A DNA stretch of 36,384 nucleotides from Deltaproteobacteria bacterium (GCA_016207775.1 JACQOU010000115.1:1-36384); one strand, 5' to 3'; positions 1,405-34,528 are shown, counted from the first letter of the stretch. Notes: a model not told the origin generated them from the sequence alone. Program-made: numbers and translations.

Positions 1405-1540
1405 AACGCGCCAAGAAATGTAGGTCCTTCGGGCCTCATCTGAAGGCGCGTGGGTAATGTTGTAGAGATTGCCCCTCCTATCCGATAGATATAACGTATT
1501 TGGATTGAAGAATACGTCAATTCAGGTTCATAATGGATCG

Positions 1541-7911: not shown

Positions 7912-9000
7912 TCACTTTCCCCTAGAGTTCTCGATGGCTGATGTGCGGACTGTCTGATGATAGCGTTTTATTAGGGCCGAAATTTGATTTTTAGCACCAA
8001 ACCGTTTTTCGTCTAAATCGACGAGTGCATTGGTATACACGGTTCCCCCTTCGATGGGAGCAAGACACTTATGCCTGCGAATGCGGTCAATATAGTGGTT
8101 AGCAGCTTGCGCGCGGCCTTGCTCGCGTTCCGTCTCCCAGTAACTGAGCGCTGCGAGATTTTGTTCAACAATGGGCATTGAATAAAAGCCCTTAAAGGGT
8201 AGCTTAAGCTCGAGGTCCAGTTTTCCCAGTGACATGCCGCGAATTTCTCCGTCAACGAGTAAACTGTGACCTTTAAACCAATAGGGGTTTTCGATAACGA
8301 CGTTTTTTGCGCTTCCAATGATCAAATGGACTGTTTTTTCATCATTGCCAATTTTTTCGTTGTCGGCTGAAGAAAGTCCCGACAATAGTACGACGATATC
8401 CACCTGGCTTTCGAGCCGTTGCAATGTCTTATTCAAAATACCTAATGGTTCATGGACAGTCACTTTGCTATTGGCTACAGACTCTTTGGGAATGGCCGAA
8501 AAAAAACCAAACTTTACACCACCTCTTTCGATGATCTCGTAGGGCTGAAAGACCGGTTTACCTTCGATGAAGACATTGGAACTGATGAACGGATATTTCG
8601 CCTTTGTGGACAAGTCTTTTAGGAAATCGATTCCAAGTAGGTAATCTTGGGGGCCTGGCGCAAACACATCAAGCCCCATCACATTGAACATCTCAATAAG
8701 CGCTTTTGCTTTTGTTCTGGCGTGGTCCAAGTGTTGAGGTTTTTCAAGAGCAAGCATATTGCCGGAATCAACATAAATCACATGAGGTTGTTGTTTTCGT
8801 ACTTGGCTGAGGAGATTCGCTTCCCGGTCAAGCCCCCCAAAGGGATGGGAATGGCAGCCACAGGAAGCCATTTCACCCTCCCGGTTGGACTGGTAAAGAA
8901 TGGAAACGTTGGTTTCAATATGCTTTGTCGGTTTGGGCGGACGGGACACGCAACTCGCTATCAAAAGTACAGCCCATAGCAAAGCAAGTATCGTTTTCAT
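7912..9000 (-). CDS. Lipoprotein with a 5'-nucleotidase/metallophosphoesterase-like layout but degenerate metal-binding motifs
   Basis: Signal peptide plus lipobox (MKTILALLWAVLLIASC). ILYQSNREGEM...GGLDR...YVDSGNML...FGFFSAIP...DIVVLLSGL...LIIGSAKN parallels the UshA/YfkN pattern LHTNDxHG...GGxAR...DAGDxxQG...IIGGHSH. The Asp/His ligands are largely replaced, and there is an extra SCGCHSHP motif. Confidence 0.45.
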   Translation of the reverse strand: MKTILALLWAVLLIASCVSRPPKPTKHIETNVSILYQSNREGEMASCGCHSHPFGGLDREANLLSQVRKQQPHVIYVDSGNMLALEKPQHLDHARTKAKALIEMFNVMGLDVFAPGPQDYLLGIDFLKDLSTKAKYPFISSNVFIEGKPVFQPYEIIERGGVKFGFFSAIPKESVANSKVTVHEPLGILNKTLQRLESQVDIVVLLSGLSSADNEKIGNDEKTVHLIIGSAKNVVIENPYWFKGHSLLVDGEIRGMSLGKLDLELKLPFKGFYSMPIVEQNLAALSYWETEREQGRAQAANHYIDRIRRHKCLAPIEGGTVYTNALVDLDEKRFGAKNQISALIKRYHQTVRTSAIENSRGK

Positions 9001-9058: not shown

Positions 9059-10048
9059 TTAATTTACATATTTGCCATAAAAGCAGGATCGAATGGTCGG
9101 CTCCCACTGGCTCTGTGGAGTCGCCAGGACGTTCTGTGCCCCGCTCAGTAGGGCTGCGTGGTCGTATACAGCACCCTTTTTTCTATCCTCGGGAAAAGAC
9201 GGGAACAGACCCTCGGTTGCAAATCGCACTGCAGGCGGACCACCTTCATCCAGAACGGGGCTTGCAATCAAGCCCATGGCAACATTGAGGCCCATTGTTC
9301 TGCAAGCTTCCTGTTGTGATACAGCACAGTGGAGATGCGTTTTCGAAGCTGCCTGCCAGACAGCTGCAATCCGGCCCATCATGTCATCACCGTTTGGTTG
9401 CTTGCTTAAGTTGTTCATTTTTGAAACGACTTGTTGCAAAGTTGTCTGGTTCACCCCGAGCTTTGCTCCATCGCCACCAGAAAGTCTAAAAACTTCGTTG
9501 AAAACCGCTTGGAAACGGGCATCGGCGCTGCCTTCCCCGACACGGCTTGAAGTAAAACGAGCAGTGGGCGCACAACTTTTGCCCGTGCATGGGACCGGGG
9601 GACGATCTTCCACGGTCATACCGAGTGCTGCGACCAATGAAAAAGAGGAATTTTTTTCTGTCGCGGAAACTGCAGACTCCAGACGTCCTAAGGCGGCAGC
9701 CACTCCATTGGATCGCGCAAACTGCACTGCCTGCTCCATTTGTTCGGGGGATAGCGTGTTGAAAGTGACTCCTTTTAAGCGGGCAACATTCAATGCTCTG
9801 GCAAGACCGGCCGCTGCTGGGTTATTCATGCCCTGCAAAAATCTAACCGCCTGTGAGGCTTTGCCTTCATTAAGGAGAGTTAATGCAGCCTTCAACTGGG
9901 TCAATTGTTCGGCACCCGCTTCCAATGCTGCTGCCCCACCTTTAGCAAAAGCATTGGGTCCTACGCCGATTGTTAACGCTAGGCATAATAGAAGAGCGAA
10001 ACAGCTAAAATTCTTTAACATATTGCGATCCTTCATATAAAGTTTCAT
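9059..10048 (-). CDS. Secreted Ala/Gly-rich hypothetical protein
   Basis: A GGGAGGGG Shine-Dalgarno lies ~8 nt upstream of ATG 10048 (MKLYMKDRNMLKNFSCFALLLCLALTIGVGPNAFA|KGG, a clear signal peptide). The track start at 10102 lies further upstream. No family recognised. Confidence 0.6.
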   Translation of the reverse strand: MKLYMKDRNMLKNFSCFALLLCLALTIGVGPNAFAKGGAAALEAGAEQLTQLKAALTLLNEGKASQAVRFLQGMNNPAAAGLARALNVARLKGVTFNTLSPEQMEQAVQFARSNGVAAALGRLESAVSATEKNSSFSLVAALGMTVEDRPPVPCTGKSCAPTARFTSSRVGEGSADARFQAVFNEVFRLSGGDGAKLGVNQTTLQQVVSKMNNLSKQPNGDDMMGRIAAVWQAASKTHLHCAVSQQEACRTMGLNVAMGLIASPVLDEGGPPAVRFATEGLFPSFPEDRKKGAVYDHAALLSGAQNVLATPQSQWEPTIRSCFYGKYVN

Positions 10049-10171
10049 TGCTTTTGTCCCCTCCCACCGATTCTTGTTGACTTGAATCTTTCTATGACAC
10101 ATGGGGCTGGATAAGCAAGTGAAAAAATAACGCTATAAATAATTTTCTTAGGCTGCAATGCGTCTAACCTA

Positions 10172-10200
10172 TTGACCCAACGCATAAAAATTGCTATAAA
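10172..10200 (+). promoter_or_regulatory. Near-consensus sigma-70 promoter for the giant ORF
   Basis: TTGACC (10172-10177), a 17-nt spacer, then TATAAA (10195-10200). It lies 15-48 nt upstream of the candidate start codons. Confidence 0.45.
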
Positions 10201-10214
10201 GCTGCCTTTTCAAT

Positions 10215-13200
10215 TTGATGATTTTAGGAAAGCTTGGTGGGGATACTGTGTACCGTGGTTTGATAATCTATCTGTGCGTGTGGCTTGCTTTTCCCCCACA
10301 AGTCTGGGTGATGGCGGCACAGCCCTCCAATAATAATCCTGCCCCAAGACAAGCGATGAATTCAGAGGCTGCTGATTCTGCGGCAAGCGAAGAATCGGAG
10401 GATGAAGAGATTGATGAAGATGGATTAGACCCGAAATCTCCGCAAACCCCAATATGGCTAAGCACGGATGGTAGGTGGTACAGCTCTACTAAAGGAAAAA
10501 ACGCAGAAGAGTATCGAAAACTATACGAACAAAATAACGGCAATCCTGGGCCTTTGCAGTTGCAAGACTTTGGCCTCATCCGCTTTGAGGGCACACATAC
10601 TGCTGGAAAAGGCTGGTCGGGAAAGTGGGTGGACGTCGTTACAGGTAAAGAAGCTTTCATCCCACCTTCTTTGCCCAAGCCTCAGCCCAAGCCCAAGCCT
10701 GCGACGATTGATCCGGATGCTATTCTTAAAACTCCCCAGTACATCGAAAAGCGAAAAGAGGATCGGGCAAAAACTCGAAAGCAGTTGGAACTGGCATCGT
10801 GGCGAGTAAGCTACTTTGTTCGAAAATTAATCCCAAAAATTTTAGATCTTTATACAGTCGAAAACTATACCACCATTTTGCCTTATTCCCGCTGCCCGAG
10901 TCCTGTTGCTGTTCCCGAGGACCTGAGTGAAATGCAAGCCGAGCGTTTACTGAAGTTGCTCAGTGACTCTTTGACCAGTGCTCAGACTCAGCTAGCCCAC
11001 TTTTTTGAGACTTATAAAGCTGAAATTGGCCAGGTCCCTTACGTTCTGCTGGATGAGGAAGAACACGCACAACTGGATGTCTTGGAGGGGCCTAACGGAA
11101 CCCGCTGCCAACCACTCATTTGGGGGCAAAGATTTGCGCAACTAGATGAGCCGGAGAAAACACAGACCTTCAATCGAACAAATCCACTCATGCTCACTTT
11201 CTTTTATGCCCTTAGCGGAAATCCCGACGGTCCGATTACTGACATTGAAATAGGAAAGTACGTTCATTGGGTTCAAACCTTAAGAAACTTTTATAGATTG
11301 ATTGCGAAGTATCTGTGGGTCAAAAAGAGTACGGCTCAAATCAGCTCCCCCCCTGATTTCGAAGTTCAACCCGAAGCAGGAGAAAAGCTTGCCCATCAAA
11401 TGAGTCCTCAAACAACCGCTGGAAAAATCTTTGCCGGCCAGGAGCTCAATCAAGAAGAGGGACGCTTTGATCGGTGTGCGGGCCGAAAAACCTTTTGCTT
11501 TTTCGATCCCAAAAGACAAAAGCGGATGGATCAGCTTGAGGAAGTCGTGCTTACCCTTCAAATTCCGAGACCGAAGGAAGAAGGAGCTCATAACCATGGG
11601 CTTCGTTTGGCTGCTGAAATAGACTTTGTCACCATTCCCTTGGTCACTGAACTTTTTATCATTAATAAATTCCTTCCTCCAGAGAAGCAGCTTTTCCCAC
11701 CGGATGGAAGACAGGGACCCACCGTTTCAGACAAGGCACTGGAGCTTTATCGAACCTTTATGCGAGCAGAGAAGCGCGAATGGTGGGCTCAGGTTTTTGC
11801 ACAAGCGGTTTTAGCTGTTGTCCAAAGATGGCAGCAGACAGGTAACGAGCCCACTCCTGTAAGTCCCGAGTATTTTCAGGCGGCTCAAACGCTGGCTCTG
11901 AGCACACTCTCGGCCCTGCTTGGCGAGCCCCAAGCGCTTGCTGATTTGCTGATAGATGCCGCTGATAGCAAGAGCAAGACTCCGCTCGATGACCTGTCAT
12001 TGCGTCACAAACTTTTAAAAGTTCGACTGCAAATGCAACAGCTCCCTTTCTCCAGGTGGGTTACCGAGGAAAGTGGTGCGAGCGGCCAAACAAATTTCTC
12101 TTCGGTGCGGATTGAACAATTGCCTTTGTGGGCGGCGCTTGTCGTGGATGGTCTTAAAAATGTCAGTGGTTCAGAAAATATCAGACGTGTGCTTGAACAG
12201 CTGCTTTTGGATGAGGAGTTCGATACTCATTCAAAGGCACTGCTGGCTTACATTGTTTCTTTTTTTGGTGAGGAAAATCTCCCCTATAAACAGCTTATCG
12301 AGGTGTGGAATCGGAAGTTAAAAAAGCGCTGGGAGCAAGTGATCAATTCCCACAAGACAGAACTGAATAAAGCGGCTGCGTCCATCACGGATCAAATTTG
12401 CGCTCATCACCCCGCTCTGTGTGACCAGGACGAATTGGACAAGCATTTTGATTCAGGACAGCAGGCACAGCAGCTCACCTATGCGTATGCGGAAAAAGCT
12501 TCTTCGGTTGCGCGCGATGCCTGGCGAGCCGACCACGCACAGAGGCATATGCAGGGGCTTGTGAATTGGGAAGACCACTGGTTGTGGAGTTTCTTCCCGG
12601 ATAATGGAATTTTCTCGTATGGGCCGGGGTCCTGGAACGTTCACCATGCGTACACGAAAGCTTATGAAAGTGAACGAGCTCGGTCGTTAGACAAAGGCAG
12701 TCCAAAGCAGGTGCATGGTGTGATGCCAGCCGTCAATCCGTGGTTTTTAATCGACGATGGCGAGGGGCATGGCTATGGCTACAGTTTTGATGTGCCTGAT
12801 GCCAGCACTAAGCCCGGTTATCACGAAATGAAGGGAGCGATAGCGGCTATTGCCGATAGAAACGTCGAGCGACTGGCCAGTGAAATGAAACTGTGGTTCC
12901 GAGAAAAAGTGAAGGACACTGCTGAGGTGACTGACGAAGATCTGAAGCGCTATTTTCCCGATATTCCCAGTTTCAAAGTGCTTGCCTTGATGGTTATTCG
13001 ACGGTTCCATGCTACTTTGGAAGCGACCGAACAGTCAGGCCGCTCTGAAGTGGCAGCGGACTTTGAGAAGGCTTTTAAGCCGCTTCATGAATGGCTGGAA
13101 AATAGAACGACGGCCGGCCGCCAGTACGCATTTGCTGCCGAGAGTTTCGCCAAACGTTTGTACGACCAATACCTTTGGTCCCCCCTTGAAAAGCACCATG

Positions 13201-16200
13201 TGGAAAATTCCCAAGCATCTAAAAAAGTGGTGGAGGAGAGTTTGTCCACCCTGCTGCAGTACGAGGTTTTTTTGGATACCTCGCTTCCGGTTGATTTCTT
13301 AATTGCACGCTATGGGCTGGCTAGGCAAACTGAAGAATTTGCAGGATCGATTAGGACCCTTGGTGCAGACGTCGTCAGAGCAAACTTTCTTGATGCCAAG
13401 ACAGGGATGGAGGAGTCCAAACGGTGTGATTTGGAAGAATGGGTATCCAAGGCTCGGGCGTCATTAGAAGATTCGAAAATCCGTGCGCTTTACCAATGGC
13501 GTTTTTCAACCCTTACTGAGCGAACAGTCGAGAATCTGCTCTCTACGTACTCAAAAGATAGTCCCCCGCCTTTTGACGGCGAGAAAAAGCCGGCTTCCAA
13601 GAAGCCTGCGCCGAAAACTGCGTCAGGCAATGTGCCGGCAAAACCGCAGGAGCAATCACCAAAGGCAGCAAACGGTGTTTCCTCGCAGGCTGATGCGTCT
13701 GCGGCTGCTTCAGTTCCACCTGGGCGCAATCCGTTTGAGCTTGAAATAGACAATTTGCTCGAAGTGTGGATAGGCGCTCCGTGGGTTGGGGAGGATAAAG
13801 AGGCACGCGCAAAATCGCGTACTGCACTTATTGGATGGCTTCGGCAAGTGTTTGGATCCTATCAGTCTGAAAAAGCCAAGGTTTCACCTGCCGAATATGT
13901 TTTTTACCTGCGTTCGCAAATTGCCAGCAATGCACCGGAGAAGTTTGGTATTTGGAATGTCGCAATCAGCGCTAAGTTTCAGGCGATTGAAGCAGCGTTA
14001 AGAAGCAAGGATCCCAAGGCGCCTGAGCAACTGGCCAAATTAATGGGAACAATCTTCCGGGAATTTGAGCTTTTGCAGGGCGATAAAATTCTTCGCGATC
14101 GAATAGCGGATACGTTGTTTGTGCGTGCTTTGCCTCAACTAATACTTCCCAGTTTTACCGTATTTTCCACTGAACTTGGCCGAAAAATGGCAGCGGTTAA
14201 AAGGGCAAAGGAAGACCCGATAAAAGTTGCTGAGGCAGCGGAAAAGCAGTTGGCGGCACATGAAGGAGCTCTCACATCGGTAACAGACCCGCAAGCTCGC
14301 AAGGAACTGCAAACACGCATTGCGCATTTCAGAACCATGCGCAGTCTCGCACGTGCACAGCAAAAGGAATGGGTGGTGCTGAAACGCATGTTGGAAAACA
14401 CCCCTGTGCAAGCCGCTCGGGAATCGATAGTGGCGTTGTCGAAAGATAAGAAAGACTACCGCGCGGCTTTTGAAAACTATTTAAAAGATCAGTTCTGGGA
14501 TACCCCACTCGATGCAACGGGCAGTGCCTTTGAAGCCGCAATGACTCCTCGTCAAATCCTGGACGATCTCAATGAACTCGGTCAGTACGTACGGGGCTAC
14601 TTGCCTGTGGACGGGGAAATTGCAAAGCAGTTTTTACATGAACTTGGGGCTTACTGCGAAAGTGGTGAAAGTCCGGTTGCTGCAGCTGCATTCCAAAAGA
14701 GTTTTGAGTCAGCAATTAATAAAGATGAACTGCCAACTGTACTTCGTTCACCTATGCCGAGTGGTCCACTGTCCAAGTTGGAAAAGCCGAAGAATCAGCC
14801 AGAGACTGAGCCAGAGACTGAGTCAGGGGATGAATCAGCGACTGAATCAGCGAAACAAGGCGCGCAGCAGTCAAGCGTTCCTCGGCCACAATATTCGGAG
14901 GATGATTCGAAACGGTTCGAGCGCATCGATGCTTTTATCAAAAAGCATAAGGTGGGAAGTGCGAAGGATTTTTGTGCGGTTCTGAAAAAGGAGTCGGTAG
15001 CCGTTCTTTCGCGTATCGAAAAAGAAATGAAAGAACAAGGCCACGTGGGTCAGTCCGCAAAAGATTACTGGGAGCTTGTGTGCATTGCTTCGGATGTTTT
15101 TTTTAGAGCCAATCGCAAATTTGCTCCGCTGGTTGATTCCAAATCAAAGGTACACTGGTTTAGTCATGCTCCCATCGCCCATTTGGGGGGAGGCAAGGAA
15201 GTCTTCCAAGGCATTAAGGGATTCAAAACGCAAGAAACGGTTTTGGCGGCCCTCGCATCCGTTGTGACAAAACCTGAGCTTACCCATGAAAAACTCAAAT
15301 TTCTTGTCAGCTGGTCGTATGGCGCTTCCGAGTATATCCTTCCCAAAGAGCCCGCCCAGTGGACAGCGTTACTGGGACAGGCAAACAAACTTCAGTTTTT
15401 CCCCCAAAAAGCAAACCCAGAGGTGATCGCGGCTTTGACGAAACAAGGACTGGTTGGAATCAGTCTTAAAATTAATGATCCCGACGTAGAAGATAAATTC
15501 ATGGCTGCCTTCCAACCGTTGGTTGCTTCCAAGGTGCTCGATGCCGAGAAAGCGGAAGATTTTCGTGCGTGGTTGGTTGCTCAAACGCCAAATATCGATG
15601 CAGATTTGCCGAAAAGCGCCGACCTTCCTACTCGTTTGAAAGGCCGCACGCTTCCAAAGGAAGAAGTTGCCAAAATCACCGAGCAGTATGTTCAAGACCG
15701 CCTGCAATGGCTCAATGGGTTGACGCGTGAACAAAGACTCGGTCTGTTTGTGAGCCTGGACCGGTATTTCATCTCCAGATTTTTCATGAATGTCCCCCAA
15801 GGTTCCATTGAGCTAGTGGATGAAGGGCCGTTGCGTGCGCGTTTTGCTTCGTACGATGAATGGCTGTTGGCGATGAAGCTTCGCCTTGAACTCTACGATG
15901 CGATGAAACAATCGCTTGGGATAATGCCTGATGCGATGAAACAATCACTTGGGATAATGCCTGATGCGATGAAACAATCGCTTGGGATCATGCCTTTAGA
16001 ATCGCTCGGTATTCATAATCTATCGTCGGAACTTTTTGAACTCATGGTTCCGTACACGCCTTACCGGTACCAGGGAGGACAGTTGTGGTTACCGACGGTG
16101 GGGCAGGCACGTCCCTCGATTGACAGGTCTCGAAAAGAATTTATGAGCGCTCCACTGCTGCAAAAAAGGCGTGTGATCGATCGCATTGCCCGCCTTTTCA

Positions 16201-19200
16201 AAGCGGAAGTCGAAGTGGGAGTGCAGCCTTTTAAAGAGATTTGGAATGCGCCCAGTGCAGATATGGAAATGGGTCAGCCCCTCATTTTGGGATGGCCACA
16301 AGATAAAGCGCTTGCCATCTACACCCGATATTTTGCGCCCAAAAACGCTGATTCCCAGGGTGTTTCAATCGAAGAGTGGATCTCGTACTGCTCAGAACGA
16401 AAAAAAGAAGGGCTTCGTTGTGGAGCGGTGCCGTCCAACGAATTTAAGCCAGGGTGGGGGATGGGTGAAAAAACCGACCAGGCTGCACTTTTCAATATTT
16501 GGTTTGAAGCGCTTGCCAACTCTCCATGGACGCATTCCATCTTTGCCGCAAATCAGCTTAAAAAACCGAGCTCCATTGCTTCACCGCATCTGTGGGAAGT
16601 TTTCGACAGCTTGGACCAATTCAAAAAATCAAAAGACTACGGTCAGCTGATTGGGCTGCTGCGTACGATGGACGCCAATGCGGGGCTTACGATTACACCC
16701 GAAACCTGGCAGCGGCTGATGCTTTCCTTAAGCCATGATCGGCTGCACCATGCGAAAGAACCGCAACTTGAAGTAGGCGGGAAGCTTTCCGACGAGCATT
16801 TTGCATTTTTTATGCAAAAACTCGTCGATGGCATTGGCATTAATGTGAAAGATTTCCACGGTTATTTAGAAACCTTGCACGGTCGCGACCGGCCAGAGGA
16901 TTGGCTCAACATGGCGCAATTCAGGTGGCACGCTCTTGTGGGGATCCCCCAGTGGATGTTCTTACAAACGAGAGTCAGTGCGCCGTACTGTGTTTCAACG
17001 TCATCCTGGGAGTCCGACTACAATGAAAGGCCGGTTCCGATTGTGAGCCAGGAGGAATTTAGCAAATTTCGTCCGTCGTCTTTGAGTTTAGAGCAGTACA
17101 TCGAGAGGGTTTTGGATCCGTCTCTGAACGAGCGCAACCGGGTACTGACCGAGGATACCGAGGGTGTTCCCCTGTACTACAAATTGATGGCGATAGAAAA
17201 TCGGATGGCAAGTTTAGAGGATTGGGCTGCCGGTGTACCGGATCGGAGGGATACTTTTGCGAAGTTTGCCCACCGGTGGTCTGAATATGATTTTGTCGGA
17301 GTCGACACGTCGACTAAACAATTCGAATTATTGAAGCAGCAGATCAGGCAAAAATTGAGAGCCACGCAGATCGAGCTTCCAGACGAAAAGCTCATTAACG
17401 CTATTAAAAACTGGGAGAGGCTTGCTCGAATCAGAAATCTCATTAACGAGGCGAATTTCAGGCTGCCTGTTGAAAACTTCCGCGCAACGCAATGGGGACG
17501 CGGTCAAGAAATCCCCCTCTGGGAAAAATCCGTTGTGGAACAAATGCAAGCGATGGTGTGGGAGTGGTGCCGGCAAAACGGGATTCCCAAAGAGAGCTGG
17601 CCCAATATTTCGGCCTTGGTTGCCAAGCACACCGAGGGCGTTGGAAATCGTGGAATTCGGCGCAATATTTTATGTGCCATCTGTCACTACGAAGTGATGA
17701 GACTTCATCAACAGCGTGTTTGGGCAATTTCCCCTGGCTCCGACGACCCAAACAAACCCAATCCCTTGGCTCAGGCTCACCGGGCAACCGGCGAGGCAAT
17801 TACGCTGGCACAGCAGGCAACCGTCATTAATGATACCCAGCAAAATCAAGTGGCGTTTAACATTATCCAACATCTCATCAAGCTGAACCAGGTACGCGGG
17901 AAGCTATCGACGATAAGTACCGACGCCCAGTTGTTTGAAGCGCGCGACCTGATTTGGCAAGCTCACCTTGCCGTGATGGATAACATTCTTAAGGAGCTTC
18001 GGAAGTGGAGTCCCGAAGGTGCCAACGATAGAACATTTGGCTTGCTTGAACGAATGGTCAATGAACAAAAACAAAGGGAGGATTTCTGGAAGAAAGCCTA
18101 CACCTATTCGAATTACTTTTTGTTCTTTGCTCTTGCCGCCACCCTTTTTGGTCAGTCATTACTCCTTTTGGAGAAAATTGCCTCGCTTGCACCGACGATC
18201 ACCCGCTTTGCGCCTTCTGCTTACGCAAATCTGATTGGGGCCACGTTCGTGTACGCCCAGTACCATCAGCACGGGATGCGACAGCAAGCAATGGCGGAGA
18301 ATGAAGAATTGCACGAAGTGTTTGCAACGATCTTTAAAGGCGATACTCCACTGATTACGCAAGAGAGCGGATTTTTACTGGAGATGGACAGACGGCAACT
18401 GCTTGCAGAAGGAAGAAGCCGATGGACGTGGGGTTTTAATGCACTGGCCATGCTTTCATTCGCCGGTTTGACAGTCCGAGGGATGAAGGCATTAGGGGGA
18501 TTTTCGGCAAAATCGCTGCTTCCTCGGTTGGTCAAGTGGCAGACGCACCGTCAGTGGAAATGGACTCGGGGGGGTAAAGCCCTCGGGTTAAACGTAAAGG
18601 ATCGAGCGTTTGCGGTTTCCAGGGACAACCTTTCTGCAGCGATTGGGGCGGATGCGGGAGTCATCGATTCCGCAGGTACCCGAACGGTTGGAAGGTTGGA
18701 AAGCACTTTCCAAGGACGGCTTGGCGAAAGATTAGGGCCAGCGATCGACTCGGGATTTGCCATGCCTCCGACGCTTCGGGTTGGGGCTCGGGTGGATGCG
18801 GAACTCAAATCAACAAGAGTGCTTTTGGGGAAAAGAGTCGATGGAGTCGGAGCTGCGGAATCTGCTTCAGGAACTTTACAAGAGCGGCGTTGGTTCGTTG
18901 ATATTCCAAGACGCTTGTGGCTTTGGGCGAAGGGGAAACACCGAAAAACGGTCACAGAGCTAAGTAGCAGGGAGAACTTCCTGTACGGGGTGGCTCAAAA
19001 GCTTGAAGGTCACAATCAACAACTCAAACCGTTTGTCGAGCAAACAGAAAGTCTTCTCAAAACTGAATTGGGTTTATCGGGCCGCAACTTGGATCGTGTA
19101 CTGGCGAGGATTGATCGGTTTATTGCTGAGAAATTAAGACTGGGTGTGAGTACGGTTTCCGAGGCAGAGATTGAAAAATTCCTTGTCGACGAGTTCAAAC

Positions 19201-21905
19201 TGACCGCTGAACAGGCAAAAAGGGTCAGTGCTCGGTTAAGCATTCTGACTACGCAGAGACTTTGCTGGTGCCCGCGACTGACCCAACTGGAAATCGAAGA
19301 GCTCTTTGGTACCCATGTGGGCTCCGTGGGTTTGCCTTGGTGGGCGGTTCCGTTTGATTACTTATCAGCAGGATTTGTCGGACGATTTGTGAGTGGTGCA
19401 GCCGATCTTGCGGCCATCGAGAAAATGGTTCAAGCCCTGCACGCAGCGCAAAGAGCCCGAGCCGTGGCCTTTATTGATTTTTGGACGGAGGAAGTTTTCC
19501 CCTGGTTAGACAAAGTCATTTCCGAACTGAATAAAGACCGACCTCAGCATTTGCAAATCAGCCGACACGATATCATCGCATGGATGCTGGGCCGAAGAGT
19601 GAGAAAACTCGAAGGTATTGCACTCTTTGATCTGAGGACGAGTCGCGATGGGTATTTGCTTGCGGAAGAAGGCAGACTTGCTGAGTCTGGATATGCGGCT
19701 GGGTATGAAGGAGCTCCGGTTGCTTTTGAGGGGGAGGGAGTGGTCTCGGGTGATATCCTTCGGCGTGCCCGTTTGATTTCTCACATGAACGATTTAAGAA
19801 AAACCGTCAATCTCGGGCGTTGGAATGTGGATGATGCGCTGATTGATGCAATCGATAGTTGCAATTTCCGAGCGCTTCTTAATCGAAAAGAAATTTCCAT
19901 GGCCCGCCCGCTCCACAAGCGTGAAGTTGAAAAGTTTGATGAGGCGGAAGCGGGTGTGGATGAAGGACCAGCAGCACCGACTGAGCCTGAGCCATCTGCT
20001 CCAAGAGAGCGTGTCAGGCTGAGTGATGAAAACCCGTTATCCAGAGCAAATATTGAGTTGGATTTACCTGTTCGTCATGAAGGCATTCCGATCCGCTATG
20101 AGCGGGTGGTCGAGCTCGCTTACGACGATGTTCCATTTGAAGCATTTGAATATCAGACGGGGGTGCTAGAAGTCGCAGGAAAATTAGATTCCGAACAGCG
20201 GCTCGCGAGGCTCATTGCTGGAGCGGTCAAAGAGTCGAGAGAAAGAATTAGCAGGTGGGCATATACGAGGAGTTGGGGTGCGGAGTTTCATCGAGATGTT
20301 CAAGTGTTCATCTCTCGAGTTGATTTAGTATCAAGCCGCGTGACACTCCATCGCGCATGCGGTTTGTACGGATTGCCTGCAGATACTGAACTGTTTGCTA
20401 AAGGGACTCTTAAAAACATTGACGAATTGCGTGCCGTACTTGGCTTAGCTCCGGATGCCCCAGCGGATATTTGTTTGGCAAGGATCAAAGAACTTCGCAT
20501 TCACCTTAACGAAGTGCTTGAAATTCAGCAGCGGTGGAAGAAATTGTCTTTTACCCATTATGACAAGCCTGTAGAGGAAACTGCTCGACAATTGCATCAA
20601 GGACTAGCTCGATTGGATCAGGCCGAGCGAGTGCTCAGGCCAATAGCCACTCCGTCCGGGACCGTTTCGACCGGTGAACTTGCTCTAGGTCCAAAACCAG
20701 GTCCGGCGCCTGGCGCAGGCCCTGCTGCTGGTGAACTGCGTAAGCCCTCGCCTGCAAAAAAAGCAGCTGGGCCGCCGTCTGGTGCTGCAGCGGTGCAACC
20801 CATCACCGATCCAAGCAGGCTGTTAACGTATTCAGGCGTGCGCGAAGCCGAACCCTTCGTACACGCATTGAGGTTACACAATAAGCAAGTGTTCCTGGAA
20901 ATCGCTGAAGCGCTCGGTCCGAGTGAAGAGTCGGTGCAAGTTATTTTAAGGGTTCTTGAGAAAATGTTTGGACAGATAGATTCAGTACGTTCGGCCGAGC
21001 TGGCGTTAGTTGAGGAACTTGCCCAGCCACAAACCCTGTTCGGGGCTCAGCATGTTGCAAGGCTTAGACTTCTCCGACTTGCTCGCATTTATGAAGCGGA
21101 TAGGGCCCTTGCTTCTTGCGGAGTGGATTCGGGTATTCGAGCCGAGATTCTGGCTTCGCGCCTCAGGCTTGTGGATCAGACGCCGAGGTGTTGGATGAGT
21201 GAATCGGGTGCGCGACATTACATCCAGACGCTTGCAAGACAGCATTTTATCAGTTTAGAAGACGACTTTTTAATCAGTGCTTCTCCAATATGGAAAAGTA
21301 GTGCAGGGATCGCAAAGCTTGAAGATGCGCTCCAAAACGCAAAGACGGTGGCGAAAAAGGGTTTGCCTCCGTTGAAGATGCGCGTGCAACTGTTTGAACA
21401 AGCAGTACAAGCAACAAAAGTGCGGGGTTCGTTTAAGCCTGCTTGGCTCGAACAGGATCTCGAGGTGCTGGGAATAGAAGGACCTATTTCAGGTTCCGCG
21501 TTCGGTCTTACCTCCGAAGAGTGGCTTGCCCTTCTTCGTAACCGCGGTCTTATTGAAAACGCAGAAGGCCTTCGCGCTCTTCAAAGGATGGCGTGGGGAA
21601 ATGCGTTTGTGCAGCAAGGGGGTTCAGCCCAACTTGCTCAATTTTTCCAGTTCAATCTGCGTGTGCTTGGCTCCCCTGGAGTGCCCGAGCTTGTGTTGGA
21701 AACAAACGAACAAATCGTTCAGGCCCTGCGAGTTAGTGCTGAAATTTCATCGCGGATTAAAGACATCAGAATGCCCAACGCAGACATGTCCGCTTTGTTC
21801 CAACTCCAACGTGCCGAACAGCGCTTGATACGAGCCCTCGAGCCGCATGCCTCACGCCTTGAACAAGCCGGAATTGAGCTTCCGAAGCTGACTATCATCA
21901 AATAG
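10215..21905 (+). CDS. Giant 3,896-aa orphan protein (signal-peptide-like N-terminus, modular, internal hydrophobic helix cluster)
   Basis: Uninterrupted 11,691-nt reading frame. Candidate starts are TTG 10215, ATG 10218 and GTG 10248; the last is preceded by GGTGGGGA and gives MYRGLIIYLCVWLAFPPQVWVMA|AQP. There are five low-complexity linkers and hydrophobic segments at aa ~2631-2757. No recognisable enzymatic or adhesin repeat motifs. Confidence 0.85.
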   Translation: MMILGKLGGDTVYRGLIIYLCVWLAFPPQVWVMAAQPSNNNPAPRQAMNSEAADSAASEESEDEEIDEDGLDPKSPQTPIWLSTDGRWYSSTKGKNAEEYRKLYEQNNGNPGPLQLQDFGLIRFEGTHTAGKGWSGKWVDVVTGKEAFIPPSLPKPQPKPKPATIDPDAILKTPQYIEKRKEDRAKTRKQLELASWRVSYFVRKLIPKILDLYTVENYTTILPYSRCPSPVAVPEDLSEMQAERLLKLLSDSLTSAQTQLAHFFETYKAEIGQVPYVLLDEEEHAQLDVLEGPNGTRCQPLIWGQRFAQLDEPEKTQTFNRTNPLMLTFFYALSGNPDGPITDIEIGKYVHWVQTLRNFYRLIAKYLWVKKSTAQISSPPDFEVQPEAGEKLAHQMSPQTTAGKIFAGQELNQEEGRFDRCAGRKTFCFFDPKRQKRMDQLEEVVLTLQIPRPKEEGAHNHGLRLAAEIDFVTIPLVTELFIINKFLPPEKQLFPPDGRQGPTVSDKALELYRTFMRAEKREWWAQVFAQAVLAVVQRWQQTGNEPTPVSPEYFQAAQTLALSTLSALLGEPQALADLLIDAADSKSKTPLDDLSLRHKLLKVRLQMQQLPFSRWVTEESGASGQTNFSSVRIEQLPLWAALVVDGLKNVSGSENIRRVLEQLLLDEEFDTHSKALLAYIVSFFGEENLPYKQLIEVWNRKLKKRWEQVINSHKTELNKAAASITDQICAHHPALCDQDELDKHFDSGQQAQQLTYAYAEKASSVARDAWRADHAQRHMQGLVNWEDHWLWSFFPDNGIFSYGPGSWNVHHAYTKAYESERARSLDKGSPKQVHGVMPAVNPWFLIDDGEGHGYGYSFDVPDASTKPGYHEMKGAIAAIADRNVERLASEMKLWFREKVKDTAEVTDEDLKRYFPDIPSFKVLALMVIRRFHATLEATEQSGRSEVAADFEKAFKPLHEWLENRTTAGRQYAFAAESFAKRLYDQYLWSPLEKHHVENSQASKKVVEESLSTLLQYEVFLDTSLPVDFLIARYGLARQTEEFAGSIRTLGADVVRANFLDAKTGMEESKRCDLEEWVSKARASLEDSKIRALYQWRFSTLTERTVENLLSTYSKDSPPPFDGEKKPASKKPAPKTASGNVPAKPQEQSPKAANGVSSQADASAAASVPPGRNPFELEIDNLLEVWIGAPWVGEDKEARAKSRTALIGWLRQVFGSYQSEKAKVSPAEYVFYLRSQIASNAPEKFGIWNVAISAKFQAIEAALRSKDPKAPEQLAKLMGTIFREFELLQGDKILRDRIADTLFVRALPQLILPSFTVFSTELGRKMAAVKRAKEDPIKVAEAAEKQLAAHEGALTSVTDPQARKELQTRIAHFRTMRSLARAQQKEWVVLKRMLENTPVQAARESIVALSKDKKDYRAAFENYLKDQFWDTPLDATGSAFEAAMTPRQILDDLNELGQYVRGYLPVDGEIAKQFLHELGAYCESGESPVAAAAFQKSFESAINKDELPTVLRSPMPSGPLSKLEKPKNQPETEPETESGDESATESAKQGAQQSSVPRPQYSEDDSKRFERIDAFIKKHKVGSAKDFCAVLKKESVAVLSRIEKEMKEQGHVGQSAKDYWELVCIASDVFFRANRKFAPLVDSKSKVHWFSHAPIAHLGGGKEVFQGIKGFKTQETVLAALASVVTKPELTHEKLKFLVSWSYGASEYILPKEPAQWTALLGQANKLQFFPQKANPEVIAALTKQGLVGISLKINDPDVEDKFMAAFQPLVASKVLDAEKAEDFRAWLVAQTPNIDADLPKSADLPTRLKGRTLPKEEVAKITEQYVQDRLQWLNGLTREQRLGLFVSLDRYFISRFFMNVPQGSIELVDEGPLRARFASYDEWLLAMKLRLELYDAMKQSLGIMPDAMKQSLGIMPDAMKQSLGIMPLESLGIHNLSSELFELMVPYTPYRYQGGQLWLPTVGQARPSIDRSRKEFMSAPLLQKRRVIDRIARLFKAEVEVGVQPFKEIWNAPSADMEMGQPLILGWPQDKALAIYTRYFAPKNADSQGVSIEEWISYCSERKKEGLRCGAVPSNEFKPGWGMGEKTDQAALFNIWFEALANSPWTHSIFAANQLKKPSSIASPHLWEVFDSLDQFKKSKDYGQLIGLLRTMDANAGLTITPETWQRLMLSLSHDRLHHAKEPQLEVGGKLSDEHFAFFMQKLVDGIGINVKDFHGYLETLHGRDRPEDWLNMAQFRWHALVGIPQWMFLQTRVSAPYCVSTSSWESDYNERPVPIVSQEEFSKFRPSSLSLEQYIERVLDPSLNERNRVLTEDTEGVPLYYKLMAIENRMASLEDWAAGVPDRRDTFAKFAHRWSEYDFVGVDTSTKQFELLKQQIRQKLRATQIELPDEKLINAIKNWERLARIRNLINEANFRLPVENFRATQWGRGQEIPLWEKSVVEQMQAMVWEWCRQNGIPKESWPNISALVAKHTEGVGNRGIRRNILCAICHYEVMRLHQQRVWAISPGSDDPNKPNPLAQAHRATGEAITLAQQATVINDTQQNQVAFNIIQHLIKLNQVRGKLSTISTDAQLFEARDLIWQAHLAVMDNILKELRKWSPEGANDRTFGLLERMVNEQKQREDFWKKAYTYSNYFLFFALAATLFGQSLLLLEKIASLAPTITRFAPSAYANLIGATFVYAQYHQHGMRQQAMAENEELHEVFATIFKGDTPLITQESGFLLEMDRRQLLAEGRSRWTWGFNALAMLSFAGLTVRGMKALGGFSAKSLLPRLVKWQTHRQWKWTRGGKALGLNVKDRAFAVSRDNLSAAIGADAGVIDSAGTRTVGRLESTFQGRLGERLGPAIDSGFAMPPTLRVGARVDAELKSTRVLLGKRVDGVGAAESASGTLQERRWFVDIPRRLWLWAKGKHRKTVTELSSRENFLYGVAQKLEGHNQQLKPFVEQTESLLKTELGLSGRNLDRVLARIDRFIAEKLRLGVSTVSEAEIEKFLVDEFKLTAEQAKRVSARLSILTTQRLCWCPRLTQLEIEELFGTHVGSVGLPWWAVPFDYLSAGFVGRFVSGAADLAAIEKMVQALHAAQRARAVAFIDFWTEEVFPWLDKVISELNKDRPQHLQISRHDIIAWMLGRRVRKLEGIALFDLRTSRDGYLLAEEGRLAESGYAAGYEGAPVAFEGEGVVSGDILRRARLISHMNDLRKTVNLGRWNVDDALIDAIDSCNFRALLNRKEISMARPLHKREVEKFDEAEAGVDEGPAAPTEPEPSAPRERVRLSDENPLSRANIELDLPVRHEGIPIRYERVVELAYDDVPFEAFEYQTGVLEVAGKLDSEQRLARLIAGAVKESRERISRWAYTRSWGAEFHRDVQVFISRVDLVSSRVTLHRACGLYGLPADTELFAKGTLKNIDELRAVLGLAPDAPADICLARIKELRIHLNEVLEIQQRWKKLSFTHYDKPVEETARQLHQGLARLDQAERVLRPIATPSGTVSTGELALGPKPGPAPGAGPAAGELRKPSPAKKAAGPPSGAAAVQPITDPSRLLTYSGVREAEPFVHALRLHNKQVFLEIAEALGPSEESVQVILRVLEKMFGQIDSVRSAELALVEELAQPQTLFGAQHVARLRLLRLARIYEADRALASCGVDSGIRAEILASRLRLVDQTPRCWMSESGARHYIQTLARQHFISLEDDFLISASPIWKSSAGIAKLEDALQNAKTVAKKGLPPLKMRVQLFEQAVQATKVRGSFKPAWLEQDLEVLGIEGPISGSAFGLTSEEWLALLRNRGLIENAEGLRALQRMAWGNAFVQQGGSAQLAQFFQFNLRVLGSPGVPELVLETNEQIVQALRVSAEISSRIKDIRMPNADMSALFQLQRAEQRLIRALEPHASRLEQAGIELPKLTIIK
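15897..15995 (+). repeat. 3 x 33-bp in-frame tandem repeat (DAMKQSLGIMP x3) inside the giant ORF
   Basis: The copies are at 15897-15929, 15930-15962 and 15963-15995. Copies 2 and 3 each differ from copy 1 by one synonymous change (tcg>tca; ata>atc). A degenerate partial fourth unit (LESLGI) follows at 15996-16013. Confidence 0.97.
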
Positions 21906-21994
21906 CAAATTGAATCGCCGGGCACTTCGTCCTCAAAGGATGGTTACGAATGCCCCGAATTGTAAAAACAACTGCAGTCAAAATTGACTGAATG

Positions 21995-22675
21995 TTACCA
22001 TCTGCGCATTCTCTTCGGATTATATCGATGTTCAACAAAACTGCTCTGTTTTGTAGAGCAACAGACGATAAAAAGAACCCCCGCTATAAATCCCCCCACA
22101 TGTGCTCCAAAAGCAATTTGGGCTTCGCCACCCAAGCCACCCAAAAGTTGCATGATAAACCACAACCCCAGAAAAAAAATTGCTGGGATACGAATGACTT
22201 GAAAGAAAAAACCCAATGTAATCAACGTGCGGATACGGATACGAGGGAAAAGAACCAGGTATCCACCTAAAACGCCTGAGACAGCGCCGCTGGCGCCAAG
22301 GGTTGGGATGTTGGAGCTGTGATTGAGAAATATGTGAGCGAGGCCAGCGACTATTCCTGTGATAAGGTAGAAAAACAAATAGCCAACATGCCCAAGATAT
22401 TCTTCCAGATTGTCGCCAAAAATCCACAAAAACCACATGTTCCCGAGAAGATGAAGCAACCCACCGTGAAGAAACATCGAGCTAAACAAAGGCAGCAGGG
22501 ATGAGGGGATGGAACCGAAGATTTCGGCTGGAATAATTGCATAAGCCATCACGAAGCTTTCTGCCCTCATGCCGATAGAAGCCTCGTAAATGAAAACGAT
22601 GGTATTAATAACAATCAGACCAATCGTTATAAACGGTACACCGTGAGATGGATTTTCGTCGCGCAGAGGAAGCAT
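21995..22675 (-). CDS. Rhomboid-family intramembrane serine protease
   Basis: 226 aa and multi-pass. It has FLHGGLLHLLGNMWFLWIFG (the HxxxN region) and TLGASGAVSGVLGGY (the GxSG catalytic Ser), followed by a distal AHVGGFIAG His helix. Confidence 0.9.
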   Translation of the reverse strand: MLPLRDENPSHGVPFITIGLIVINTIVFIYEASIGMRAESFVMAYAIIPAEIFGSIPSSLLPLFSSMFLHGGLLHLLGNMWFLWIFGDNLEEYLGHVGYLFFYLITGIVAGLAHIFLNHSSNIPTLGASGAVSGVLGGYLVLFPRIRIRTLITLGFFFQVIRIPAIFFLGLWFIMQLLGGLGGEAQIAFGAHVGGFIAGVLFIVCCSTKQSSFVEHRYNPKRMRRW

Positions 22676-25276: not shown

Positions 25277-25471
25277 ATCCCCGTCCCATGTGTTGGGCGC
25301 CAGATCCAAAAGATATGCAATGTCCCGCGGGAAAGTGCTGGTGGAGCGGTCAGTTTTTCTGCACCGTTAAGGTCTATTACCCCTTCACCACGGACTTTTT
25401 TCACCCTCAGTGAAAAATGCTCGCTATTATTTTTGACTGTGGTAGAAATTACTAATAAGAGCCCACTATTT

Positions 25472-26596
25472 ATGAACTTCACAAGACGATATCTAACCGA
25501 CCAAGTTATCGCCGATTTAAGCCGAAAAATGGTCTTCTTGGGTGGGCCCCGTCAAGTTGGTAAGACAACCTTGTCGAAACAGATTGCGCCCCTTGAAGAC
25601 TATGATTATCTCAACTGGGATGCAGACGATGATAGAGACAGGATTCTTCGAAAGGAGTTTTCGAGCAAGTCTCTTTGGATTTTCGACGAATTGCATAAGT
25701 ACCGGTTATGGAGGCGTTATCTCAAGGGATTGTATGACAAGAGGTCTTCCGGACAGAAGATTCTCGTAACCGGAAGCGCCCGACTTGACTACTATCGATT
25801 TGGCGGAGACTCCCTCCAGGGACGGTACCACTACCTGCGACTGCATCCACTTTCGGTGGCAGAATTAAACAGCGGTGAATCCGCTGATGTAGCAGCGGAT
25901 CTGATGAAGCTTGGCGGATTTCCTGAACCTTTTTTCTCCGGATCAGAAACAGAGCTCAAGCGATGGACAATCGAAAATCGTACGCGCCTTGTGCGTCAGG
26001 ATTTGATCGATCTTGAGAAAGTAAGTGATGTGGGGCGACTTGAGTTGCTGATGTTACGTCTCCCTGAATTGGTAGGGTCACCGCTCTCAGTGAACAGCTT
26101 GCGTGAGAACCTAGAAGTATCGCACAAGACCCTCTCCCACTGGCTCGATATACTTGAGAGACTCTATGCGATATTTCGTATAGCACCTTTCGGCGCTGAT
26201 CGTATCAGAGCAGTAAAAAAAGCGCGCAAGCATTACCATATGAATTGGACAGTAGTAAAAGCCGAGGGACCCCGCTTTGAAAATCTTGTGGCAAGTCATC
26301 TTCTCAAATGGGTGCACTATCAAGAAGACTGTTTTGGAAAAGAGTGGGAGCTCCGTTACTTTCGCGACGTCGACCTGCGCGAAGTTGATTTCGTCATCAC
26401 TGAAGAAAACAAACCCATTCTAATGGTCGAAGCCAAATTGGAGGACAGTCCCGTTACCGAGGGTCTTAAGTATCTTAAGACTCGATTTCGAAATGCTGAC
26501 GCATATCAGATTAGCCTCAAGGGCAATAAAGATTATGTGACAGCCGACGGAATTCGCGTCTGTCCCGCCACGGCTTTTCTTCGGACATTGGTATGA
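25472..26596 (+). CDS. AAA-family ATPase with C-terminal DUF4143-like domain
   Basis: Walker A is GGPRQVGKTT and a Walker B-like segment is LWIFDELH. The length and layout are typical of the 'ATP-binding protein, DUF4143' family. The first ATG (25472) is preferred to the track's TTG at 25433. Confidence 0.75.
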   Translation: MNFTRRYLTDQVIADLSRKMVFLGGPRQVGKTTLSKQIAPLEDYDYLNWDADDDRDRILRKEFSSKSLWIFDELHKYRLWRRYLKGLYDKRSSGQKILVTGSARLDYYRFGGDSLQGRYHYLRLHPLSVAELNSGESADVAADLMKLGGFPEPFFSGSETELKRWTIENRTRLVRQDLIDLEKVSDVGRLELLMLRLPELVGSPLSVNSLRENLEVSHKTLSHWLDILERLYAIFRIAPFGADRIRAVKKARKHYHMNWTVVKAEGPRFENLVASHLLKWVHYQEDCFGKEWELRYFRDVDLREVDFVITEENKPILMVEAKLEDSPVTEGLKYLKTRFRNADAYQISLKGNKDYVTADGIRVCPATAFLRTLV

Positions 26597-28505: not shown

Positions 28506-28732
28506 TATTTTACGTCCTGTTTGGCATCATCATGGGTAGCGGTGCATGCACTCACAAAGTCAAGATCGAGCCTTCAGACAAGCCGTTTGTGGTCAATCTG
28601 AATGTGAAGGTGGATCACGAAATCAAAGTTCAGATCGAGGATCAGAATAAGGACCTGTTAAATCTCGAATCTGAGATTATGGAAAAGAAGACACCACGTA
28701 AGCAAGCCGTAAAGAAAGGCAATAGGAGGTAA
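28463..28732 (+). CDS. ynbE: YnbE-family small lipoprotein
   Basis: The mature part CTHKVKIEPSDKPFVVNLNVKVDHEIKVQIED matches the YnbE signature (C-x-x-x-[IV]-x-[IV]-x-x-x-x-KP-[IF]-x-[IV]-N-[LM]-N-V-K-[IV]-x-HEI). A GGAGAAGGA Shine-Dalgarno precedes ATG 28463. The gene overlaps the ydbH 3' end by 43 nt. Confidence 0.8.
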   Translation: MGRKSSGYHAPSPLIFYVLFGIIMGSGACTHKVKIEPSDKPFVVNLNVKVDHEIKVQIEDQNKDLLNLESEIMEKKTPRKQAVKKGNRR

Positions 28733-28733
28733 T

Positions 28734-34416: not shown

Positions 34417-34528
34417 TGTCACCTCACCATAGATCGGATTCCACTGGCCCCCTGAAATGCCTCCTTATAGTACAAGCGTTTTGCCGACACAATCTGTTTT
34501 GCTGCGATGTATCAAAACAGTCGGATAT

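Follow-up and report, generated by a model that had tools for sequence, protein, structure and literature searches.

What does a bacterial gene of about 11.7 kb encode when its product resembles none of the giant proteins described so far? The question is raised by a stretch of 36,384 nucleotides (GCA_016207775.1 JACQOU010000115.1:1-36384, deposited as Deltaproteobacteria bacterium), the whole of which is referred to here as the window, and in which 3,896 codons run without interruption on the plus strand from a TTG at 10215 to the stop at 21905. Giant bacterial proteins are mostly surface adhesins, and nearly all those that have been studied consist of repeats of known modules (adhesins, toxins, megasynthases); giant hypothetical proteins in metagenome-assembled genomes (MAGs) are not rare as such. 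Our comparisons indicate that this protein represents a previously undescribed, lineage-restricted family of giant proteins. A preliminary description of the window had already pointed to one uninterrupted frame, and the open reading frame (ORF) does prove to be one genuine gene. At the composition and stop-codon frequency of the window, 3,896 codons without a stop would arise by chance with a probability of about 1e-64, and a codon-usage log-likelihood score trained on eleven Pfam-annotated neighbours gave positive values for frame 0 and negative ones for each of the five alternatives in all seven of the 1.5-kb tiles scored (10248-20747). The GC contents at the first, second and third codon positions are similar to those of the neighbours, which together with the coding signal shows that the gene is coding and native to this genome. 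The gene (10248..21905, plus strand) gives a product of 3,885 aa from GTG 10248, identical to GenBank MBI4403481.1 (‘MAG: hypothetical protein HY537_04935 [Deltaproteobacteria bacterium]’); the GTG start is consistent with this deposited product and is preceded at a distance of 5 nt by a Shine-Dalgarno-like site, GGTGGGG (10236..10242, plus strand).

The same preliminary description regarded the protein as an orphan, and in this it was mistaken. An exhaustive phmmer search with residues 2040-3239 against 1.84 billion cluster representatives recovered the query protein and, beyond it, 22 clusters (E 3e-37 to 5e-5, 23-32% identity), all of them aligned at the equivalent position. The representatives of 19 of the 22 clusters are 2,857-4,336 aa long and the others comprise proteins of 1,741 and 2,103 aa and a 276-aa fragment; one further sequence is a 1,983-aa partial whose cluster has a 3,989-aa full-length member. 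When the full protein was compared with its relatives by local phmmer, collinear homology extended from about residue 150 to about residue 2790, with full-sequence E values of 1e-109 to 1e-26 against near-full-length members (2,857-4,349 aa). The last ~1,100 residues found no pairwise match among the relatives. The tails of the relatives are related to one another both within and between subgroups, and a hidden Markov model (HMM) of these tails matches the giant protein collinearly at residues ~3047-3355 and 3381-3761 (E 5e-17, 47.5 bits). Taken together, the collinear phmmer matches and the tail HMM match indicate that the family is homologous end to end and that the C-terminus is simply its fastest-evolving part. 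In a full-length alignment of 21 members identity is 30-48% within subgroups and 17-25% between them, and the giant protein of the window is the most divergent member, standing on a singleton branch with 18-22% identity to all others; full-length proteins elsewhere in the family have 3,100-4,350 residues.

The distribution of the family was followed with a loop motif, RD[TS]xxxGxxPLMxDE, which roughly one in three of the available sequences carries and which occurs in all four subgroups. A degenerate DNA pattern for this motif, run against one genome per species for 185,579 GTDB species, gave 11 matches, seven of which were confirmed by the family HMM; the other four, from other phyla, are false positives. 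All seven are MAGs, four labelled Bdellovibrionota/Bdellovibrionales, two Pseudobdellovibrionaceae and one ‘Pseudomonadota bacterium’ (the contig of P0003). The loop-motif pattern found one true member among seven matches in the JGI metagenome collection. The few NCBI names of members read Bdellovibrionales or Bdellovibrionota bacterium, and all confirmed members with labelled records are MAGs, so that the family is so far rare and, among confirmed records, restricted to uncultured Bdellovibrionota. Our search of the literature found no paper describing such a family. The window protein has four of the five family features, namely collinear homology to other members over more than 2,500 aa, the PPQVWA-type signal peptide, the N-terminal cysteines with hydrophobic helices two-thirds along the chain, and the divergent partner gene; its loop motif (FKGDTPLITQE) and its TYPYFLALLNWN core (here TPETWQRLMLSLSHD) have both diverged, in keeping with its singleton position.

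It should be noted that the orphan label would have survived most ways of searching. Word-indexed searches with the transmembrane (TM) region, with residues 150-1495 and with family alignment A1 were empty, and peptide-pattern scans with the single protein found no relatives in GTDB genomes or JGI metagenomes, which places the source MAG outside these two collections; because the query protein itself was missed in both cases, these searches are uninformative as to orphan status. Exact look-ups of the rhomboid and of the giant protein in a contig index found neither. The word-indexed search produced 8,000 candidates and 0 matches, though the query and its 22 relatives are in the collection; its candidates seem to have been taken up by chance word matches, as the queries were long and contained low-complexity linkers. 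The lesson is that word-indexed and degenerate-peptide searches would leave such a protein labelled ‘orphan’ and that only the exhaustive, profile-free HMMER search revealed the family.

Within the protein, the N-terminus has the form of a signal peptide, MYRGLIIYLCVWLAFPPQVWVMA followed by AQP (10248..10316, plus strand; also read as IYLCVWLAFPPQVWVMA followed by AQP), with an acidic stretch behind it, both where the preliminary description had placed them. The cleavage site predicted by the −3/−1 rule would fit signal peptidase I. A motif YL(C/S)x5PPQVWA with Q directly after the cleavage point (consensus ‘YLxxxxxFPPQVWA’) is kept in most full-length relatives at an overall identity of ~20%: PPQVWA occurs in P0002, P0003, P0005, P0011, P0012, P0022, P0024 and P0028 and variants of it in others, and the family-mean hydropathy peak at residues 4-22 corresponds to the signal peptide. 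Four cysteines follow (C216, C287, C410 and C417; 10893..11498, plus strand), which are invariant in an 8-sequence alignment (A3) and at least 85% conserved in a 20-sequence alignment; the cysteine content of the whole protein is only 0.6%. This pattern suggests two disulfides and hence an oxidising, periplasmic compartment for the N-terminal part. Five Pro/Ala/Lys/Glu-rich linkers had been described and all were found where they had been placed on the plus strand: linker 1 (PKPQPKPKP, 10674..10700), linker 2 (Pro/Ala/Lys-rich, 13559..13730, sparsely occupied across the family alignment), linker 3 (Pro/Glu/Thr/Ser-rich with 12-nt repeats, 14770..14885) and linkers 4 and 5 (19940-20005 and 20686-20805), which lie within the C-terminal ~1,100 aa. 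Linkers 1-3 fall in parts of the alignment that few members occupy and that are prone to insertion, linkers 4 and 5 only approximately so. The proposed division into about six modules does no more than describe these linkers, and no module is related to another by profile-profile comparison: internal module duplication was rejected when thirteen 300-aa family tiles compared all-against-all with hhalign gave probabilities below 1%, and the several thousand residues are unique, non-repetitive sequence.

The most conserved stretch of the family, a signature domain at residues ~2100-2400 (16545..17447, plus strand), has the consensus LWxxxxSLExF...DxNAxA...TYPYFLALLNWN...GWExLL...PEDW...RRFL...RPFP, and gave no Pfam, PDB or Foldseek match; in the model described below it reaches a predicted local distance difference test score (pLDDT) of 70-90 in places. 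It is followed by a membrane region (18096..18485, plus strand) made up of two hydrophobic helices (TM1, residues 2617-2641; TM2, residues 2655-2676), an acidic loop of ~50 aa and a weaker third hydrophobic helix (residues 2726-2746, here TM3). TM1 has a hydropathy of 1.9 in the window protein and a family-mean peak of 1.41 (residues 2617-2635), a further family-averaged peak lies at residues 2651-2672, and the hydrophobic peaks occur at the equivalent alignment place in most members. The loop between TM1 and TM2 is slightly positive and the 50-aa loop between TM2 and TM3 acidic. After the last hydrophobic helix comes a strongly basic stretch (18486..18617, plus strand; net charge +9 here, +5 as family mean) and then the C-terminal ~1,100 aa (18618..21902, plus strand), the fastest-diverging and yet still homologous part, which is rich in Arg, Leu and Ala and helical in a low-confidence model. 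In the N-terminal part Lys exceeds Arg and the net charge is −21, and the tail has 9.2% Arg vs 4.4% Lys and a net charge of +10. At highly conserved columns W, P, G, L, Y and F predominate, and in the handful of polar columns (D, E, N, R, S, T) neither the family alignments nor a motif search reveal a recognisable catalytic motif. An AlphaFold2 model of residues 2027-2800 built with 14 sequences (pLDDT 66, predicted TM-score 0.54) is almost entirely helical and places the hydrophobic segments in three helices of ~24-44 residues; a single-sequence model of residues 3240-3885 is all-helical and, at pLDDT 42, useless for fold. The protein is therefore predicted to be largely alpha-helical in the two tiles modelled.

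Nothing known resembles this protein by sequence or, for the fifth of it that was modelled, by structure. There was no match in Pfam, NCBIfam, PHROGs or PADLOC, even at E<=0.1-1, phmmer against PDB chain sequences gave a chance match only and profile searches of the PDB sequences with alignments A1 and A3 (the latter full-length) gave nothing; nor was a Pfam domain found in any of 12 full-length relatives. Foldseek with the model of residues 2027-2800 found nothing similar in the PDB (best E 0.77, TM-score <0.2) or in BFVD (best E 0.11, to tape-measure-like long helices). A motif search found no HExxH, Walker A, RTX, YD or LPXTG motif, which for the first four agrees with the earlier reading of the translation. 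That reading had also excluded the usual classes of giant protein, and here too it was right: the Pfam, NCBIfam and motif searches reveal neither RTX/type I secretion system (T1SS) adhesin features (no GG.G.D motif, Pfam domain or internal repeat; T1SS genes missing both from the window and from the 10 related loci), nor those of Rhs/YD polymorphic toxins (no YD motif, no Rhs Pfam match), nor nonribosomal peptide synthetase or polyketide synthase domains at E<=1, a signal peptide being present instead. Of the family of large clostridial toxins, LifA/Efa1 and the chlamydial cytotoxin no Pfam TcdB_N, Peptidase_C80/C58-type or TcdA_TcdB_pore match was seen. In plasmid and phage collections tblastn with the giant gene found no match, and a mobile-element origin was rejected on this ground. 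By its sequence the protein appears to stand outside every known family considered.

Some known systems are nonetheless alike in one respect or another. The nearest architectural analogy may be offered by giant helical envelope proteins of the Ebh type (Staphylococcus), which likewise begin with an export signal, extend outside the cytoplasm as a very long and predominantly helical region, end in a C-proximal TM segment followed by a positive stretch, and presumably have a structural role in the envelope. Ebh consists of dozens of FIVAR/GA repeats, comes from a monoderm and is not known to share any sequence with the giant protein, whereas the giant protein has no repeats and no Pfam match, has two to three hydrophobic helices followed by ~1,100 aa, and comes from the diderm Bdellovibrionota. 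AsmA-like proteins (TamB, YhdP, YdbH) are also large and inner-membrane-anchored with a big periplasmic part, and have an N-terminal anchor, beta-rich domains (AsmA, DUF490 or YdbH-like) with a beta-taco groove and a fold that Pfam recognises; the giant protein differs in its cleavable-looking signal peptide, its helical tiles and an anchor two-thirds along the chain, and Pfam, which detects the YdbH-like protein encoded in the same window (26625-28505), finds nothing in it. The giant proteins of Omnitrophota (‘archaeovorins’, dockerin-type) are likewise very large, poorly annotated, membrane-associated and derived from (putatively) predatory MAGs. They have 10,000-85,000 aa and many TM helices, carry SecA-DEAD, C39/S8 peptidase, dockerin or carbohydrate-active domains and lie near genes resembling those of type II secretion systems (T2SS) (bioRxiv 10.1101/2023.11.21.568195). 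The protein studied here, in contrast, has 3,885 aa and two to three TM helices, neither it nor the 12 relatives have any of those domains (SecA-DEAD and dockerin/thrombospondin domains included), and no secretion genes are conserved nearby.

What surrounds the gene was read in ten further loci, nine of them intact (the giant gene is split in L018), so that counts out of ten for the partner refer to the nine intact loci and the window. All ten of these loci have, directly upstream and on the opposite strand, a gene for a protein of 269-347 aa with a signal peptide, an Ala-rich composition, a C-x6-9-C pair and a C[FYLV]xxG motif ~10 residues from the C-terminus. In the window this divergently transcribed partner, an Ala-rich secreted protein with both cysteine motifs, occupies 9059..10102 on the minus strand, its start being probably ATG 10048 or 10021. 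BLAST links six partner proteins into two groups, and an HMM of the nine non-window partners ranks the window ORF at 9059-10102 first of 222 six-frame ORFs (E 1.6e-4). The association of a divergent secreted protein with the giant gene, which the preliminary description had suspected, thus recurs in size, orientation and cysteine pattern in all ten loci, and the pair is best described as a giant gene and a fast-evolving partner that appear to share a divergent promoter region. Next to the partner is an UshA-like lipoprotein gene with a CGC motif (7912..9000, minus strand; NF041198 at E 7.8e-49, below the curated cut-off; PDB 5'-nucleotidase N-domains at E ~1e-7), and in 8/10 loci an orthologue of it (29-40% identity) lies no more than 10 kb from the giant gene. 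The lipoprotein of the window is related to the ‘UshA-like (seleno)protein, PCGU’ family, with CGC in place of CGU and only the N-terminal metallophosphatase-like half present; a redox role towards the Cys-containing giant protein or its partner is conceivable.

Downstream, seven of the nine other intact loci have an opposite-strand gene for a small ribbon-helix-helix (RHH)-like protein of 59-100 aa and then, directly or past one or two inserted genes, a class A penicillin-binding protein (PBP) gene and rimP, with nusA, infB, rbfA and truB behind rimP wherever the contig extends that far. The PBPs are 53-57% identical in loci whose giant proteins share 22-25%. Neither the RHH-like gene nor the rimP/PBP side is present in the window. 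A functional link to PBP1A was not adopted, as the flanks are housekeeping (rimP-nusA-infB, hflX, clpB), which points to plain synteny, and this side is missing from the window. The conserved chromosomal neighbourhood and the empty plasmid and phage searches point to a vertically inherited gene, and nothing in our tests points to the suggested host-interaction system, the surroundings of the gene being conserved and of a housekeeping kind and both collections being free of it. The convergent rhomboid gene (21995-22675) and the repeat-protein gene behind it (22886-25276) had been named as further unexplained neighbours of the giant gene; neither occurs in any of the 10 related loci, and as they are not conserved neighbours a functional link to them was rejected and they are no part of a common system.

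The reading that we favour is that Sec exports the giant protein, which then, anchored in the inner membrane, serves together with its secreted partner as a scaffold of the envelope. We put this forward tentatively, and as a whole with slightly less than even confidence; its descriptive part we hold much more firmly than this, and the word ‘scaffold’ less firmly. The conserved N-terminal signal peptide would route the chain via Sec, and the first ~2,600 residues would fold in the periplasm, held by the two conserved disulfides. A strongly hydrophobic segment behind a signal peptide integrates into the membrane and is not exported, so that TM1, with its hydropathy of 1.9, would be expected to stop transfer and with TM2 to anchor the chain; as stop-transfer and hairpin segments, the hydrophobic helices at residues 2617-2676 would then hold the protein in the inner membrane. 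With a membrane-spanning third helix (three passes) the Arg-rich ~1,100-aa tail would be cytoplasmic and the protein would link both sides of the membrane, an arrangement suggested by the positive-inside rule because the TM2-TM3 loop is acidic and the stretch that follows is basic. If the third helix does not span (two passes), the tail would be back in the periplasm and the whole protein periplasmic, held by the hairpin. As no catalytic motif is recognised and both modelled tiles are helical, we read the protein as a structural scaffold of the envelope and not an enzyme, working with the divergently encoded small secreted Cys-containing protein. The phrase ‘secreted or membrane-inserting scaffold’ in the preliminary description remains fair, given the export signal and the conserved membrane-inserting helices; export, topology, disulfides and scaffold role are all properties that we infer from sequence.

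Several points count against this reading. The third hydrophobic helix is weak, so that there may be two membrane passes or three, and the tails of the relatives mostly have 0-1 cysteine, as would suit a tail on either side, extracytoplasmic or cytoplasmic. Moderate confidence (pLDDT 66) was reached in the model of no more than 774 of the 3,885 residues, and known folds may hide elsewhere in the protein. The fast divergence of the family (giant proteins ~20-25% vs PBP1A 53-57%) fits diversifying selection on a prey- or environment-facing protein at least as well as it does a housekeeping scaffold. Finally, the proximity to PBP1A and nusA may be simple chromosomal synteny and is missing in the window.

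A bolder form of the scaffold reading, which we think possible and yet on balance unlikely, is that the giant protein and the small partner would be the core of an unrecognised Bdellovibrionota-specific envelope-spanning structure, in which new alpha-helical folds link cytoplasm, inner membrane and periplasm and which is needed for the particular envelope biology of these bacteria, for example prey attachment or entry or the organisation of cell shape or pole. If an envelope-spanning protein is indeed what the gene encodes, it would be among the few giant bacterial proteins of several thousand non-repetitive residues. Either way, there are ~3,900 unique residues here for which neither the curated families nor the solved structures offer a detectable relative, and independent Bdellovibrionota lineages have retained the giant gene undivided, at a constant chromosomal position and next to the same partner, despite ~20% identity; this combination of retention, constant place and partner, and drift marks a lineage-defining and so far undescribed function. 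Should the gene pair occur in a cultured representative of the Pseudobdellovibrionaceae, it would be directly testable there.

The alternative that survives best, improbable though we judge it, is a prey-directed effector or translocator: the Sec-exported protein or a processed part of it would be delivered to prey where predator and prey touch and its helical hairpin inserted in the prey membrane, the partner being a chaperone or receptor-binding subunit. Bdellovibrionota are known for predatory members, and the extreme divergence of the protein relative to neighbouring genes, even faster in the partner, is what would be expected of arms-race proteins. The protein is also cysteine-poor, with tails that are nearly cysteine-free, and its hydrophobic segments lie in the ~24-44-residue helices of the model. 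However, a segment with a hydropathy of ~1.9 behind a Sec signal should stay in the inner membrane of the producer, and neither genes for T1SS, T2SS or type III or type VI secretion systems (T3SS, T6SS) nor a processing protease are conserved adjacent to the gene. Each locus has one copy in a constant neighbourhood that is neither variable nor island-like, the C-terminal part is homologous across the family and not swapped, and these particular MAG lineages are not known to be predatory. The proteins that such an effector would most call to mind, the helical-hairpin toxins and translocators (colicin pore, diphtheria T domain, T3SS translocators and the delivery domain of large clostridial toxins), also have a hydrophobic helical hairpin in a larger helical protein; they show no sequence (PDB) or Foldseek similarity to the giant protein, which also lacks the glucosyltransferase, protease and receptor-binding domains of large clostridial-type toxins, and they are not known to be Sec substrates with an N-terminal signal peptide.

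That the protein is a cell-surface adhesin or fibre, displayed outside to bind prey or substrate, we consider very unlikely. Size, signal peptide, low cysteine content and Pro-rich linkers would all suit such a protein, and an attachment role has been proposed for giant proteins of other predatory bacteria (bioRxiv 10.1101/2023.11.21.568195). Against this, Pfam finds no Ig-like, cadherin, haemagglutinin, beta-helix, RTX or other repeat and profile-profile comparison no internal repeats, both modelled tiles are helical and not beta-rich, and neither the family scans nor a reading of the C-terminus gave an outer-membrane anchor or a signal for T1SS or for type V or type IX secretion (T5SS, T9SS); the conserved internal TM helices argue for retention in the inner membrane. 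A polymorphic toxin, in which a delivery region conserved at the N-terminus would be joined to an exchangeable toxin domain at the C-terminus and followed by an immunity gene, was suggested by the end of pairwise homology at about residue 2790, the last ~1,100 aa matching no relative, and by the small opposite-strand gene that follows in 7 loci. This reading is close to refuted, as the collinear match of the family tail HMM (E 5e-17) removes its basis: the tails are homologous within and between subgroups, which makes the C-terminus divergent and not swapped. Moreover, no Rhs/YD, PT-HINT, contact-dependent inhibition (CDI) or known toxin domains occur in the giant protein and 12 relatives, and the small downstream gene is conserved (44-51% identity), RHH-like and missing from the window. 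Least credible of all is an assembly artefact, chimeric contig or decaying pseudogene kept open by chance, for although the contig derives from a metagenome bin, the gene contains a perfect-looking 33-nt tandem repeat in three copies and one relative (L018) has it in pieces, collinear full-length genes of 3,100-4,350 aa occur in independent NCBI, ENA, JGI and Logan assemblies, the coding signal is uniform over the seven tiles scored, and hflX and clpB of L018 are split as well, which speaks for sequencing errors or general decay there and not for loss of this gene.

The repeat just mentioned (15897..15995, plus strand) lies in frame inside the giant gene, encodes DAMKQSLGIMP three times with 95% identity between copies, and could reflect recent slippage or an assembly effect. 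L018 is GCA_036704275.1, contig JBAJGS010025920.1, a Bdellovibrionota-like contig of 3.77 Mb and number 25,920 in a large whole-genome shotgun project, and is possibly a bacterium within a eukaryote assembly; its giant gene, hflX and clpB are each found in two or three ORFs, by sequencing errors or genome decay. L024 (JACCDG011138858.1) looks like a comparable case.

Around the giant gene itself, the preliminary description had proposed a near-consensus promoter, and the sequence TTGACC-17-TATAAA is indeed present at 10172..10200 (plus strand) as a putative promoter-like site; its −10 hexamer ends in A and lacks the conserved last T, and a consensus scan, which found fewer promoter-like sites in this region than in shuffles, did not pick it. 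A hairpin matching the terminator consensus, CAGTCAATTTTGACTG (21975..21990, minus strand), lies between the convergent giant and rhomboid genes and is possibly a terminator.

Further upstream are a hexapeptide acetyltransferase (4191-4748), a glycosyltransferase of family GT2 (4682-5593) and a 779-aa protein that has no family match and at least 7 TM helices (5522-7861, minus strand); this trio, also found upstream of the giant gene in L021 only, could be a periplasmic glycosylation module. The plus-strand gene at 22886-25276 encodes a secreted protein of 796 aa, built of repeats of ~50 aa whose motif is (hydrophobic)3-W-x-[DS]-x-R...[IV][YF]G; the protein has no Pfam, NCBIfam, PHROGs or PADLOC match and probably adopts a beta-propeller-like fold. 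Defence and toxin-antitoxin genes are scattered over the window (1469-2900, 25433-26596, 29413-29799): AbiEii followed by AbiEi, in the order toxin-antitoxin, a PIN-domain protein, and an AAA_14/DUF4143 ATPase with a match (E 2e-45) to PDC-S01, a candidate system of PADLOC. At 26625-29138 the YdbH-like (AsmA-family) protein is followed 229 bp downstream by a DUF1318 (YdbL-like) protein, a pair that resembles the ydbH-ynbE-ydbL arrangement of Enterobacteria, and a small gene for a YnbE-like lipoprotein could lie in the 229-bp gap. Window proteins at 30262-31929, 32590-34422 (minus strand) and 34529-36253 (minus strand) have no family match.

In the related loci the RHH-like gene, which has the consensus PTPLTVTLKAHIVRDLKEMEKNTK.PVDELVTKALKMFIATHNDYLG and a ribbon-helix-helix-like appearance without a family match, lies downstream of the giant gene, or in L015 downstream of clpB (L001, 23073-23288; L002, 20709-20888; L003, 21022-21324; L015, 22451-22636; L019, 13817-14005; L020, 20896-21081; L021, 22372-22566). 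A further family, ‘E’, which is absent from the window, consists of proteins of 1,250-1,400 aa encoded near the giant gene in 4/10 related loci (L001, 1678-5883; L002, 2755-6504; L016, 3648-7661; L021, 640-4437).

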